From Gemmatimonadota bacterium (GTDB lineage: Bacteria > Gemmatimonadota > Gemmatimonadetes > Gemmatimonadales > GWC2-71-9): DNA of 27,077 nt. The DNA lies in assembly GCA_003220905.1 (NCBI GenBank), contig QHTS01000087.1, positions 1 through 27,077 of the forward strand. Direction: 5' to 3'. Positions within the stretch are counted from its first letter, which is position 1. Each line of letters opens with the position of its first letter. Both the position numbers and the translations under genes were made by a program. Shown piece by piece: positions 2 to 9,520 of this stretch. The notes under the pieces were generated by a model. That model made no database searches. It worked only from the letters and a program-made list of their open reading frames with translations, and was not told where the DNA came from.

Positions 2-595
2 AAGCACGTCGTGGGGTTGTTGCAGCCCGACGCCGGAGACGTCATCGTTGACGGCCGCGCGGTATCGACGCTCGAGCGGGACGCCCTCATGGCGCTGCGC
101 CGCGAGATCGGATTCGTGTTCCAGTTCGCCGCGCTGTTCGACTCGATGACCGTGTTCGACAACGTGGCGCTGGGCTTGAGGCGGCGCGACCTCTCGGACG
201 ACGAAATCGCGGATCGCGTACGCGAGGCGCTGGCGGTCGTGGACCTGACGGGCGCGGAGGAGAAGCACCCGGCCGAGCTGTCGGGCGGGATGCGCAAGCG
301 GGTGGGCATCGCACGCGCCATCGCCCTGCGTCCCCGCTACCTCCTGTACGACGAGCCCACCACCGGCCTCGACCCGGTGACCTCGGCGGTGATCGACCAG
401 CTCATGGTGCGGACCCGCGAGCATCTCGGCGTGACCGGCATCGTGGTGACGCACGACATGCGGAGCGCCTATGCCGTCGGCGACCGCATCGCCATGTTGT
501 ACGAGGGCAAGATCCGGCAGGTGGGTACCGTGGCGCAGATCCAGCAGTCGGAGGATCCCGTGGTCCGCCAGTTCATCGAGGGACGCCCCGCGTGA
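2..595 (+). CDS. mlaF: ABC transporter ATP-binding protein, MlaF/Ttg2A type (5'-truncated by window edge)
   Basis: Frame is open from the window start (KHVVGLLQPD). It contains Q-loop FQFAALFDS, signature LSGGMRKRVGIARA, Walker B LLYDEPT and H-loop VVTHD. It overlaps the start of an MCE gene (GTGA). Confidence 0.88.
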   Translation, partial: KHVVGLLQPDAGDVIVDGRAVSTLERDALMALRREIGFVFQFAALFDSMTVFDNVALGLRRRDLSDDEIADRVREALAVVDLTGAEEKHPAELSGGMRKRVGIARAIALRPRYLLYDEPTTGLDPVTSAVIDQLMVRTREHLGVTGIVVTHDMRSAYAVGDRIAMLYEGKIRQVGTVAQIQQSEDPVVRQFIEGRPA

Positions 596-1599
596 AGCGC
601 GAGAACGAATTCGCCGTCGGCTTGGTCGTGATCGCGGCGTTCGCGGTCGTGGTGGCCGGCGCGTTGTGGCTGTCGGGCGCGCATCTCGGCCGCACGGAAG
701 CGGTGTACACGGCCCGGTTCCGCACCGTGGGGGGGCTCGGCGTGGGCGATCCGGTGGTGCTGCGGGGCGTACGGGTCGGCCGGGTCGAGGCGATCCGGCT
801 CGCCTCCGGCAACTGGGTGGAGGCGGATCTGAAGATCTACGCTGGCGCGCAGCCCCCGCCCAGGCCGGCGGTGATCGCCGCGTCGGCGTCCCTGTTCGGC
901 GAGTGGGCGGCCTCGCTCGTCTCGCTCGACCAGCTCCCGAACGATCCCAATATCAAGCAGGCGATCGCGGAGGCGCAGACGGCGGGGGGCGGGAAATGGC
1001 CGGGCGCCACGCTTCCCGACATCGGCCAGCTCACCGCGCAGGCGAGCCGCATCGCGACGGACATCGCGACCGTGTCCAGCCGGATCCAGACCGCGTTCGA
1101 CTCCGAGGCCGTGCTCGAGCTGCGGCAGTCGATCAAGGATTTCGGCCAGGTCGCCGACAAGCTGGTGAAAGTCACGAACGAGCAGGCCGAGGTGATCGGA
1201 TCGGTCGGGTCGAACCTGCGCCAGGGCTCGGACGTCCTCGCCAAAGCGGCGACCAACCTGCAGGCCACCCTGGGGCGCGTGGACTCGGCGACCAACCAAG
1301 GTCAGCTCGCGACCATCCTGAACAACTCCGCGACGACCAGCGCCAACCTGCGGTCGGCGTCACAGGACTTCCGCGACCTGCTCGACGCCGCCCACAAGAA
1401 CCAGGAAAGCCTGGTGCGCGTCCTGGTGTCGGCCGACAGCGTGATGTCGCGCATCGCGAACCGCAGCGGGACGCTCGGCCTGCTGGTGTCGGACTCGACC
1501 TTGTACCGCGAGACCACCCTCACGATGATCCAGCTGCGGCAGCTCCTGTCGGACATCCAGGCGAACCCGCGGAAGTATTTCTCGTTCAGCGTCTTCTAA
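592..1599 (+). CDS. mlaD: MCE/MlaD family protein with long helical C-terminal region
   Basis: N-terminal TM helix (AVGLVVIAAFAVVVAGALWL), MCE motif GLGVGDPVVLRGVRVGRVEAI, and C-terminal GTLGLLVSDSTLY...DIQANPRKYF typical of MCE proteins. Confidence 0.85.
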   Translation: MKRENEFAVGLVVIAAFAVVVAGALWLSGAHLGRTEAVYTARFRTVGGLGVGDPVVLRGVRVGRVEAIRLASGNWVEADLKIYAGAQPPPRPAVIAASASLFGEWAASLVSLDQLPNDPNIKQAIAEAQTAGGGKWPGATLPDIGQLTAQASRIATDIATVSSRIQTAFDSEAVLELRQSIKDFGQVADKLVKVTNEQAEVIGSVGSNLRQGSDVLAKAATNLQATLGRVDSATNQGQLATILNNSATTSANLRSASQDFRDLLDAAHKNQESLVRVLVSADSVMSRIANRSGTLGLLVSDSTLYRETTLTMIQLRQLLSDIQANPRKYFSFSVF

Positions 1600-1603
1600 G
1601 GCA

Positions 1604-1704
1604 AATGCGGATTTCGGAATGCGGAATGCGGAATTGCAGTGAAGGTTCGCTCGCCTCACGACCTCCCCTGTACATTCCGCATTCCGAATTCCGCATTCCG
1701 CATT
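1604..1704. repeat. Heptamer-armed palindromic element, copy 1
   Basis: Left arm 1604-1634 is (AATGCGG)x4 plus AAT, one unit being ATTTCGG. A 39-nt core follows at 1635-1673. Right arm 1674-1704 is (ATTCCGC)x4 plus ATT, one unit being ATTCCGA. It begins 4 nt after the mlaD stop. Confidence 0.95.
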
Positions 1705-1726
1705 GGGTGAGGGGCGGGGGGATGGG

Positions 1727-2209
1727 ATGAAGCGCAAGCAGCGCCGCGCCCAGCGGGAGACCTCGGCGGGCGGGGTGGTATTCCGGCGCGGATCGGACGG
1801 CGAGCCGCGGTTCCTGCTGATCCGCGATTCCTATCGCAACTGGGGGTTCCCCAAGGGCCACCTGGAACCCGGTGAGCCCCCTGCCGACGCCGCGCGCCGC
1901 GAGGTGGCCGAGGAGACCGGGCTCCAGGATCTGGTGCTGCACGGCCCGATTCGCGTGATCGACTGGTACTTCCGATTTCGCGGCAAGACGATCCACAAGT
2001 TCTGCCACTTCTTCCTGTTCGAGTCGAGGCGCGGCGAGTGCGTGCCGCAGACGGAGGAAGGCATCAGCGACTGCGCGTGGTACAGCCCCGAGGACGCCCG
2101 CCGCACCATCTCCTACGACAACGCGCGCGCGGTGCTGGAGCAGGCGACCGCGATGGTGCACGCCCTCGCCCACGTGGTGGACCGCGCCGCCCCGGAGCAG
2201 CCCGCATGA
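1727..2209 (+). CDS. Nudix hydrolase (Ap4A-hydrolase-like)
   Basis: Complete Nudix box G-HLEPG-E-PPADAAR-REVAEETGL, preceded by SAGGVV and WGFPKG. ATG 1727 is preferred because the longer ORF start lies inside the repeat. Confidence 0.88.
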   Translation: MKRKQRRAQRETSAGGVVFRRGSDGEPRFLLIRDSYRNWGFPKGHLEPGEPPADAARREVAEETGLQDLVLHGPIRVIDWYFRFRGKTIHKFCHFFLFESRRGECVPQTEEGISDCAWYSPEDARRTISYDNARAVLEQATAMVHALAHVVDRAAPEQPA

Positions 2210-2976
2210 CCGCCGTCGTGCCGGTGTTCAACCCTCGCGCCGAGCCGCGGCGGGCGGTGAAGCGCGGCTACCCGCGCGATGCGGGGAGCGTGCGGCTGTG
2301 CCGCACCCTCGCGGCAGTCGAGCGACTGCTGTACCAACGCCTCGTTGACGCGGTGGTGCTCGACGTGAAGACCGCGCCCGCCGCCGCGCTCGCGTTGCCG
2401 GCTCGGTTTCCCCGCATCCCCATGTTCGTGCTGTCGGCCCTGCGGCCCGACGACGGCCCGCTGCTCGCCGCCTGCGATGCGGCGGGGTTCGCCGGCATGC
2501 TGGTCGAGGGGGTGGACAACTCGGTGGCGGGGGAGTGGATCGCGGCCCGTACGGCGCAGGTGGCGCGACGCGAAGCGCTCGCCGATGCGCCCAAGCTGCT
2601 CCGCCTCACCGATCGGCTGCAGCTCGCTGCCTGGGACGAGGTGCTCCGCCGGGTCGGCTTCCCCACACAGACGGGCCAGGTGGCGGCGGCGCTGCGGGTC
2701 ACACGGGAGCACCTGTCACGTGAGTTCGCCGCCGGCGGCGCTCCCAACCTGAAGCGGGTCATCGATCTGGCGCGCACGGCGTGCGCCGCCGATCTGCTGG
2801 GCAATCCCGGGTACACGGTGCGGGCGGTGGTGCACATCCTCGGCTACGCGTCGACCAGCCACCTCGCGGGGGCGGCGCGGCGCGTGGCGGGAACGACGCC
2901 GCAGGAGCTGCGGGCGGTGGGGGCGCGAGGCGTGCTTCAGAGATTCATAAGAGGAAGGACGCGGTCGCGGATATGA
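2206..2976 (+). CDS. AraC-family HTH regulator with receiver-like N-terminal region
   Basis: ATGA overlap with the Nudix stop. The C-terminal double HTH pattern is VAAALRVTREHLSREF...AADLL...TVRAVVHILGYASTSHL...VAGTTP. The N-terminal alpha/beta region contains DAVVLDVK. Confidence 0.72.
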   Translation: MTAVVPVFNPRAEPRRAVKRGYPRDAGSVRLCRTLAAVERLLYQRLVDAVVLDVKTAPAAALALPARFPRIPMFVLSALRPDDGPLLAACDAAGFAGMLVEGVDNSVAGEWIAARTAQVARREALADAPKLLRLTDRLQLAAWDEVLRRVGFPTQTGQVAAALRVTREHLSREFAAGGAPNLKRVIDLARTACAADLLGNPGYTVRAVVHILGYASTSHLAGAARRVAGTTPQELRAVGARGVLQRFIRGRTRSRI

Positions 2977-3077
2977 AATGCGGATTGCGGAATGCGGAAT
3001 GCGGAATGTACAGGGCAGGTCGTGAGGCGAGCGAACCCTCACTGCAATTCCGCATTCCGCATTCCGAATTCCGCATT
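2977..3077. repeat. Heptamer-armed palindromic element, copy 2 (inverted relative to copy 1)
   Basis: Arms 2977-3007 (AATGCGG units) and 3047-3077 (ATTCCGC units). Core 3008-3046 is the reverse complement of core 1635-1673 with 2 mismatches. It starts immediately after the AraC-gene TGA. Confidence 0.95.
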
Positions 3078-3096
3078 CTTGTGATATTCCGCACTC

Positions 3097-3114
3097 TTGT
3101 GATAAGTTTCACAA
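3097..3114. promoter_or_regulatory. Palindromic operator, Rex-type or CRP-type, upstream of atpA
   Basis: TTGTGAT-AAGT-TTCACAA has one mismatch to the Rex consensus TTGTGAA-N4-TTCACAA and is a perfect TGTGA-N6-TCACA (3098-3113). It lies 19 nt before the atpA ATG. A duplicated half-site CTTGTGATA is at 3078-3086. Confidence 0.65.
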
Positions 3115-3133
3115 TCTCCTAACCGGCATCCCA

Positions 3134-4674
<1,541 letters not shown>

Positions 4675-4675
<1 letters not shown>

Positions 4676-5607
4676 TGGCGAAGCCCCGCGAGCTGCGCCG
4701 CCGCATCAAGTCCGTCCAGAGCACGCGCAAAATCACGAAGACGATGGAGCTCGTGGCCACGTCCAAGCTGAAGCGCGCCCAGGACCGCGTCGTCGCGGCG
4801 CGGCCGTACGCGACCGCCCTCGCCGAGGTCATCGGCGACCTCTACGCGCCGGAACTGGCGGAGCGGTTTCCCCTGCTGCGCCAACCGGCGCGGGACGGGC
4901 ACGGGCGCCGGGTGGCCCTCGTGGTCATCACCGCCAATCGGGGGTTGTGCGGCGCGTTCAACGCCAACCTGATCCGCGAGGCGCGGCGCCGGATCGAGCA
5001 GCTCGAGGCCGAGGGGACCGGGGTCGACCTTCATCTCATCGGGAAGAAGGGGATCACCTACTTCAAGTTCGCGAAGCGGGCGGCGGCGTCGCAGCGGACC
5101 GACGTGGGTGACAAGCCCAAAGCCGAGCATGCGGCCGAGATTGTGGGTCCACTCATGAGCCAGTTCGAGGCGGGGGCGCTGGATGCGGTGGAGGTGGTGT
5201 TCGCCCAGTTCAAGAGCGCGGTGAGCACCCCGCCCACGACGCTGCGCATCCTCCCGATTACCCCTCCCCGGGCGGACGGGCGGACGGGCGGACGGGCGGA
5301 CGCGGTGCAGTCACAGACCGCCAGTCCGGCTGACCGCCCGTCCGCCGCCTTCTATATCCTCAAGCCGTCCGCCGACGCGATCCTCGAGCAGCTCCTGCCG
5401 CTCTACGTGCGCAATCAGTTGTACCGGGCGCTCGTGGAAACCGCGGCGGCGTTCCTCGGCGCGCAGCGGACGGCGATGAAGAACGCCACCGACAACGCCG
5501 GCGAGATCATCGAGCTGCTGCAGCGCACGTACAATCGGGCGCGGCAGGCGCAGATCACCCAGGAGCTGGCGGAGATCGTCGGCGGGGCGGAGGCTCTGAA
5601 AGGATAG
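4675..5607 (+). CDS. atpG: F-type ATP synthase subunit gamma (carries an in-frame repeat-derived segment)
   Basis: Motifs RELRRRIKSVQSTRKITKTMELVA, ITANRGLCGAFNAN and AMKNATDNA...YNRARQAQITQELAEIVGGA. The ATG overlaps the atpA TGA. Confidence 0.97.
5269..5346. repeat. Octamer-armed palindromic element inside atpG
   Basis: Four perfect GGGCGGAC units at 5270-5301, a 13-nt spacer, then four degenerate reverse-complement units (AGACCGCC, AGTCCGGC, TGACCGCC, CGTCCGCC) at 5315-5346. It encodes RADGRTGGRADAVQSQTASPADRPSA. Confidence 0.9.
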
Positions 5608-8721: not shown

Positions 8722-8793
8722 GAAGGAGGTTGTGGAGGATGGTGAAGGTTGGTGATCCTCCACCATCCTCCACCGACCTCCACCAACCTCCCC
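8722..8793. repeat. Decamer-armed palindromic element
   Basis: Left arm of GGTGGAGGTT-like units (GGAGGTT GTGGAGGAT GGTGAAGGTT GGTGA) abuts right arm TCCTCCACCA TCCTCCACCG ACCTCCACCA ACCTCC. It starts 3 nt after a stop codon. Confidence 0.85.
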
Positions 8794-8805
8794 GAAGGAG
8801 TACTT

Positions 8806-9451: not shown

Positions 9452-9477
9452 AAGGAGGTTCCTCCACCAACCTCCCC
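9452..9477. repeat. Internally deleted remnant of the decamer-armed element
   Basis: AAGGAGGTT-CCTCCACCAACCTCCCC joins the first and last parts of the 8722-8793 element. It lies 10 nt after the paralog A stop. Confidence 0.65.
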
Positions 9478-9520
9478 CGTGTCGATCAGCCTCGTGCAGG
9501 TGCATTAGAGCGACACAGGA

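Follow-up and report, generated by a model that had tools for sequence, protein, structure and literature searches.

Two hairpins of 101 nucleotides (nt) flank, in opposite orientations, a NUDIX hydrolase gene and an AraC-type regulator gene in the Gemmatimonadota contig QHTS01000087.1, the 27,077 nt of which we refer to as the window. These hairpins are probably independent, gene-less miniatures of a cassette family of the 23S rRNA intervening sequence (IVS) type, similar in kind to MITEs (miniature transposable elements with inverted repeats), in which a PF05635 gene is enclosed by arms of tandem heptamers. The full-length form of the family would consist of inverted (AATGCGG)x4 arms around a single gene for a PF05635 four-helix bundle, and the miniatures may have arisen from it by internal deletion and been copied in trans. 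The cognate protein, or one of its partners, would recognise the conserved arms as a cis site. The window is contig C3 of G000, a 2.65-Mb, 73%-complete metagenome-assembled genome (MAG) of a soil member of the Gemmatimonadales with 69% GC. It shows 75–86% nucleotide identity over kilobases to contigs titled Gemmatimonadales, and is also present in soil metagenomes.

An earlier sequence-only reading of the window had described two inverted, heptamer-armed hairpins around the two genes, and both direct reading and a repeat search bear this out (Table 1). Each arm consists of exactly four heptamers of the form A[A/G]TGCGG, with a few variant units, followed by AAT; the opposite side consists of ATT followed by four CCGCA[C/T]T units. 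Taken alone, each copy is a pair of 31-nt inverted arms (28 nt plus AAT or ATT, 90–94% complementary) separated by 39 nt. Taken together, the copies form a 101-nt inverted repeat that is 95% complementary, with 1272 nt between its halves. Folding both strands of both copies gave energies of -54 to -63 kcal/mol, with z scores of -7.9 to -8.9 against shuffled sequences. The core of copy 1 matches the minus strand of the core of copy 2 with two mismatches, as had been reported, and no matches are expected by chance (100 shuffles). The statement that both copies begin within 4 nt of a stop codon also holds, copy 1 starting 4 nt past the TAA of mlaD and copy 2 immediately past the TGA of the regulator gene.

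Gene-less hairpins and the PF05635 cassette

Every long-looped copy that we examined carries a PF05635 gene, which encodes a four-helix bundle like those of the 23S rRNA IVS and of Avd. This is the only cargo found between AATGCGG arms, in a search of other loci that was not exhaustive. All five PF05635 matches in 590 kb of loci from other phyla sit in the loops of AATGCGG-armed hairpins, in two Verrucomicrobiota genomes and one genome each of Clostridia, Chitinophagales and Planctomycetota. A tree of 101 PF05635 proteins groups every protein with AATGCGG-type arms into a single clade, whatever the host phylum, and places the other paralogues of the same genomes elsewhere. The clade, with AATGCGG, AGTGCGG or ATTGCGG arms, spans Clostridia, Planctomycetota, Bacteroidota, Verrucomicrobiota and Gemmatimonadota. 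In 17 of the 28 genomes of the window's genus a clade member is present as a single copy at one conserved locus, with a gene ending in '..WEDV' on one side and obg on the other.

In the gene-less hairpins, the 46-nt loops, which comprise the 39-nt core together with AAT and ATT, align to both ends of the cassette loop (alignments A1 and A2), and the loops of both window copies are among them. The 5' end of the cassette loop, ..AAGG.AGGTCGTG, in which GTG is the start codon, matches one half of the 46-nt loops, and the 3' end matches the other half. A relic GTG is found in copy 2 at positions 3022–3024, and its complement, CAC, in copy 1 at positions 1657–1659. Compared with shuffled cores, the window copies score z values of 4.1–4.4 (p 0.005), and 18 of 22 cores reach p <= 0.035. 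The orientation of each hairpin was assigned from the alignment of the cassette loop with the cores (A1) together with this shuffle comparison. The loop-end alignments and the shuffle scores suggest that the hairpins are best read as internal-deletion miniatures of the cassette.

PF05635 genes number 0–14 per genome in the genus, and about a third of the 76 that were examined lie between inverted heptamer arrays of various units. Three genes of the genus (L264, L254 and L274) have AATGCGG or AGTGCGG arms. Five genomes from other phyla contain 30 PF05635 genes, about 15 of which are flanked on both sides, each lineage having its own unit. The arm type of the gene copy (AATG/AGTG versus AACG) agrees with the dominant hairpin type in nine genomes and is mixed in both in four, an agreement that is suggestive only, because the relatives are not independent of one another. 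Across the genus the number of PF05635 genes shows no quantitative trend with the arm count, and the joint absence of both in G012 and G017 alone stands out.

At the locus between the '..WEDV' gene and obg (L306–L322), the upstream stop codon and the ATG of obg overlap the outermost arm units. Outside the current arms, G022, G009, G008 and G001 have older arrays of another unit, often partial, in a nested arrangement, and the cassette gene is truncated in G007 and G019. At L264:333-743, in the relative G022, and at L254:328-735 the open reading frame (ORF) of the cassette runs through the right arm, giving the protein a repeat-encoded tail, and the same peptide appears in ORFs called across gene-less hairpins. 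The host genome also has one PF05635 gene between GGGGAAW arrays (C104:254-752).

Copies in the host genome and in relatives

A census of the host genome found 47 paired hairpins and about a dozen genuine orphan arms, some of them at contig ends. The arms nearly always have four units across the 47 elements. Core lengths range from 22 to 315 nt and fall into classes of 22, 29, 42, 46, 56, 62–63, 131, 192 and 315 nt, with both orientations represented; at about 20 loci the 46-nt loop is homologous as well as the arms. Inverted array pairs of at least three units number 55 at period 7, five at period 6 and seven at period 8. Six of the seven positions of the unit are nearly invariant, and position 2 is A or G. 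The two window copies are mutual nearest relatives within the genome (95%, the next best being 87% or less), and pairs of elements within 2 kb of each other are in excess (five observed, 1.4 expected, P about 0.01). These two observations suggest that one window copy was probably derived from the other, or that the two have been homogenised.

At C57:10605-10743 in the same genome the left arm is duplicated into two four-unit arrays 9 nt apart, which fits nested or repeated insertion at an occupied site. A second family of heptamer hairpins, with GGGAGCA-type units, is represented by 10 pairs. AATGCGG-armed hairpins interrupt the assembly of MAGs, and ORFs can be called through them.

The position behind stop codons is a property of the family genome-wide. 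In 35 of the 47 elements, the stop codon of a long ORF with high GC content at third codon positions lies within -2 to +15 nt of one end (within -2 to +5 nt in 27 of them), and the arm frequently supplies, with its initial one or two bases, the end of the stop codon. Among other phyla, 19 of 30 hairpins are at ORF ends, compared with 9.6% of random positions. All copies in the host genome lie between protein genes, and none was found in helix 25 or 45 of the 23S rRNA.

The arm pattern occurs in 21 of 24 genomes of the genus (1–51 arm matches per strand), with zero matches in three more, and a search of 16 genomes belonging to two sister families did not find it. The exact 31-nt arm is present in more than 120 contigs, which come from species genomes of Verrucomicrobiota, Planctomycetota, Acidobacteriota, Bacteroidota, Chloroflexota, Clostridia and other groups, and the same 28-nt arm is common to at least five phyla. 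The arms in other phyla again form hairpins, with cores that are lineage-specific. One contig titled Thermoplasmatota archaeon (L067, DASYRW010000035.1) has 71% GC, a core of the 46-nt class and 77% identity over 1.5 kb to the host genome; it probably belongs to a member of the Gemmatimonadales and was binned into an archaeal MAG by mistake.

The segment around the two window hairpins was found in 26 of the 27 other genomes of the genus, and mlaD, nudix, araC and atpA are collinear and in the same orientation in all of them. The spacer between mlaD and nudix is empty (3–20 nt) in 11 genomes and elsewhere holds AATGCGG-armed elements with 46- or 62-nt cores or members of an AACGCGG-armed sister family. 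The spacer between araC and atpA is filled in most genomes, by differing subfamilies, and only a right-arm remnant is left in three. The two spacers change state independently of each other: G009, which is among the closest relatives, has an orthologue of copy 2 that is 96% identical and an empty mlaD–nudix spacer. In a tree built from the coding sequence on the flanks, sister taxa differ in element state, and recombination is likely. Contigs from three soil metagenome runs contain the empty allele of the mlaD–nudix spacer as well as arms with other cores, and metagenome depth spikes over both window elements, as expected of a multi-copy repeat.

Comparison of filled and empty sites at C341:10432 and C212:1777 showed clean insertion with at most 4 nt of microhomology and no target-site duplication at either. 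At C212:1777 a relative has an AACGCGG-armed element at the identical nucleotide. The observation in the sequence-only reading that neither a target-site duplication nor a transposase is visible therefore stands, for the two filled and empty site pairs, for the neighbouring genes and for the sole Y1 transposase of the genome, which goes with another repeat. One of the two origins proposed there, independent insertion of a dispersed non-autonomous element, is supported by the 47 copies, by the occurrence across the genus and by the empty orthologous sites in relatives and in soil populations.

Alternative explanations and known systems

Several observations weigh against the hairpins being mobile miniatures of the PF05635 cassette. 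The homology between cores and cassette covers only about 25 + 20 nt, and the orientation calls are noisy because the cores are partly palindromic. Arm types of gene copy and hairpins disagree in G021, G015 and G002, whose gene copy has ATTGCGG arms, a type left out of the counts of hairpin arms. The assembled 73% of the host genome contains no cognate gene-bearing cassette, the usual locus being unassembled there. No copying enzyme was found: reverse transcriptase (PF00078) is absent from 25 of the 28 genomes of the genus, the host genome among them, and the sole Y1 transposase has a different repeat. Across the stem, position 2 of the heptamers forms 55 A-T, 32 G.T, 31 A.C and 5 G-C combinations, which indicates no compensation, so that pairing itself may not be the conserved feature of the arms. 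Finally, all four spacers examined hold different elements in different species, and the differing occupants could reflect old residence with replacement in place rather than repeated fresh insertion.

The second origin proposed in the sequence-only reading was an invertible or mobilisable cassette, in which the inverted 101-bp copies would delimit a unit by which nudix and araC are flipped or moved. The spacing of the 95% inverted repeat around the two genes, the closeness of the copies to each other and the excess of close pairs are all consistent with such a unit, as is a single opposite-strand contig joint (1708 to 2988) in one metagenome run. However, gene order and orientation are constant in the 26 relatives whether the spacers hold elements of the window type, other elements or none, and the spacers vary independently of each other. 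No recombinase or transposase was found inside or beside the two-gene segment, where the Pfam families are MlaD, NUDIX, HTH_18 and AtpA. The lone joint was discounted, as its 33-nt side lies within the palindromic multi-copy arms and the contigs, at about 150 nt, are shorter than needed to span the element. Because gene order is kept with or without the elements, the cassette reading, which we consider extremely improbable, fails and the dispersed repeat stays. The hairpins might alternatively never have moved, and have grown in place by heptamer expansion around small pre-existing palindromes as a by-product of replication slippage. The tandem arms, with their unit variants and extra partial arms, would be expected on this account; several unrelated units share the same architecture, including 8- and 10-mers in the window itself, and an 18-nt slippage duplication adjoins copy 2. 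Expansion in place is nevertheless very unlikely given that about 20 loci share a homologous 46-nt loop besides the arms, that empty orthologous spacers have just 3–20 nt and no palindrome, that one protein clade travels with the same arm across phyla, and that arm length is fixed near four units.

An RNA element selected by the host, such as an operon insulator, a terminator lacking a U tract, an RNase III site or a stabiliser of mRNA, would be kept behind stop codons for regulation of the flanking genes. The tightly kept position behind stops and between co-directional genes suits this explanation, as do the very stable stems of 28–31 bp and metatranscriptome contigs that cover the repeats. 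The 28-bp stems of IVSs are cut by RNase III (PMC4990558), and the heptamer pairs of Xanthomonas, which are transcribed, have a stop within 50 bp (PMC4692102). We nonetheless regard a selected RNA as unlikely. The elements are dispensable, their sites being empty in close relatives. Relative to the transcript of the upstream gene, wobble pairs and A.C mismatches are balanced (30 versus 29) and core orientation is mixed, and with this balance and mixture nothing points to selection on one RNA strand. A scan of the whole window against Rfam returned no family. A scan for terminators and promoters was empty, with 0 terminator-like sites in positions 1400–3300, and the GC-rich stem has no U tract; an intrinsic terminator was rejected on these grounds. 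Covariation analysis of the 46-nt loop with RNAalifold found no conserved inner helix beyond the arms, and compensatory change in the core is not demonstrable. Movement as a REPIN, a hairpin of paired repetitive extragenic palindromes (REPs), by a REP-associated tyrosine transposase (RAYT, a Y1 transposase) would account for the layout, since REPINs also have two conserved inverted ends, a less conserved spacer, a length of about 100 nt and no target-site duplication (PMC3116915), and the genome contains one Y1_Tnp gene. That gene, however, is flanked by a different, classical REP (CCCCGGGC..GCCCGGGG) and not by heptamers, the arms are built of tandem repeats rather than of self-palindromic REPs, and PF05635 is the only cargo ever found between these arms. 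We give a RAYT origin almost no credence.

The Y1_Tnp gene in question, which is RAYT-like, lies at C357:1844-2182 (L032), with several copies of the REP gaCCCCGGGC-ttgc-GCCCGGGGtc on both sides, and belongs to a separate family. Bracketing like that in the window was seen in another phylum at L109:5776-6821, where two AGTGCGG-armed hairpins lie 0.8 kb apart around part of a collagenase-like (DUF3656) frame. An integron attC reading was set aside, as the copies are scattered over loci of housekeeping genes whose synteny is conserved.

Several known systems resemble the elements described here in part. The 23S rRNA IVSs of Coxiella burnetii and Leptospira, whose S23p ORFs belong to the PF05635 family, carry at their ends 28-bp stems, which RNase III cuts, and how they move is unexplained (PMC4990558). 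Both kinds of element have terminal inverted repeats that pair into a stem of about 28 bp and enclose a loop, which at full length encodes a PF05635 four-helix bundle. Gene-less forms exist on both sides, and both are regarded as selfish, with an unexplained route of movement (PMC4990558). However, the present elements are intergenic, behind the stops of protein genes rather than in helices 25 and 45 of the 23S rRNA, their arms are tandem heptamers, and gene-less copies number in the tens per genome. Homology also links PF05635 to Avd, an accessory protein of diversity-generating retroelements, and the cargo protein shares its fold and family (PF05635 / cd16375; PMC10053308). The elements are not diversity-generating retroelements, since reverse transcriptase is missing from most genomes of the genus, as noted above, and there is no pair of template and variable repeats.

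Inverted pairs of heptamer repeats have been described for GGGAATC in Xanthomonas and GGGGAYT in Nostoc (Rehm et al. 2015, PMC4692102). Like the present arms, these are convergent pairs of tandem 7-nt units, mostly between co-directional ORFs and no more than 50 bp from a stop codon or overlapping it (PMC4692102). They differ in that AATGCGG has only GG runs and its arms are fixed at about four units; lacking G3 runs, the unit falls outside the G-quadruplex rationale. For the AATGCGG family we show both a common core and a connection with a protein-coding cassette, neither of which is reported for the Xanthomonas and Nostoc repeats (PMC4692102). The closest functional analogy is with REPINs and their RAYTs, which are likewise non-autonomous hairpins of about 100 nt with two conserved inverted ends, a variable spacer and no target-site duplication (Bertels & Rainey 2011, PMC3116915). 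In both cases a single-copy cognate gene sits at a fixed locus with the same ends in its flanks (PMC3116915). The cognate gene here, however, encodes a four-helix bundle and not a Y1 transposase, and the ends are heptamer arrays and not REP palindromes.

MITEs such as Correia/NEMIS and ERIC are short elements that derive from longer ones by internal deletion and end in inverted repeats; they are transcribed as parts of operons and vary from strain to strain. The hairpins resemble them in all of these respects. They differ in lacking a target-site duplication at two clean empty sites and in having a parent that encodes no known transposase. A MITE in the strict sense was rejected for the same lack of a duplication and because no parent insertion sequence with a transposase between the same terminal repeats was found; only PF05635 cargo was seen, in the search of other loci described above as not exhaustive.

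The role of the hairpins at this locus is most likely incidental. If transcribed, the stable stem of 28–31 bp would separate mlaD, nudix-araC and the atp operon and probably act there as a substrate of RNase III or as a 3'-end structure, a side effect rather than a selected function. For annotation, such hairpins would be treated neither as cassette ends nor as regulatory RNAs. It is possible, if somewhat doubtful, that the heptamer arms are recognition sites of the cognate Avd-like protein and that this protein, with neither a transposase nor a reverse transcriptase of its own, drives the copying of hairpins to sites just behind stop codons; the protein clade and its 7-nt unit are inherited together across phyla. 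Were this so, the elements would form a new class of mobile element, and recognition of the arms would explain both the excess of heptamer repeats and the origin of 23S rRNA IVSs. An excess of heptamer repeats in bacterial genomes has been noted before, and 23S rRNA IVSs with an S23p ORF have been described since the 1990s, in both cases without explanation. The AATGCGG family ties the two together: its 28-nt arm is shared, its proteins form a single clade across five phyla, its gene is single-copy at one locus per genome, and dozens of gene-less copies lie at stops. We found no paper linking heptamer repeats to IVS-type cassettes, and a full-text search for the arm sequence gave one irrelevant match.

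Neighbouring features in the window

Table 1. Hairpins, genes and an adjoining duplication in the segment from mlaD to atpA (window positions).
Feature	Positions	Strand	Details
Hairpin copy 1	1604–1704	cassette sense on -	left arm 1604–1631 + AAT, core 1635–1673, ATT + right arm 1677–1704
Hairpin copy 2	2977–3077	cassette sense on +	left arm 2977–3004 + AAT, core 3008–3046, ATT + right arm 3050–3077
MlaD-family gene	592–1599	+	Pfam PF02470; TAA stop 1597–1599, 4 nt ahead of copy 1
NUDIX hydrolase gene	1730–2209	+	Pfam PF00293; stop overlaps next start (ATGA)
AraC-type HTH (HTH_18) regulator gene	2206–2976	+	Pfam PF12833; TGA stop 2974–2976 adjoins copy 2 directly
atpA (F1 ATPase alpha subunit)	3134–4675	+	Pfam PF00006/PF00306/PF02874; downstream neighbour
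18-nt tandem duplication	3071–3106	+	last arm unit + flank (CCGCAYT+cttgtgata..); adjoins copy 2

The 18-nt duplication next to copy 2 is unique to the host genome; G009 and the other relatives have one copy of the sequence. It doubles half of an operator-like palindrome at positions 3098–3113. This palindrome is a perfect TGTGA-N6-TCACA, which we take to be the CRP/FNR-type operator consensus, and lies 20 nt upstream of atpA. It is kept in all aligned relatives, always 3' of the hairpin.

Further hairpins of similar architecture and other unit lengths occur in the window at positions 5270–5346, 8722–8795 and 9452–9480. One of them has (GGGCGGAC)x4 arms, the unit being an 8-mer, and a loop of 17 nt. 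Another consists of an array of 10-mers (GGAGGWTGGT-type) opposite its complement with nearly no loop, and the third is a short remnant of the 10-mer hairpin.

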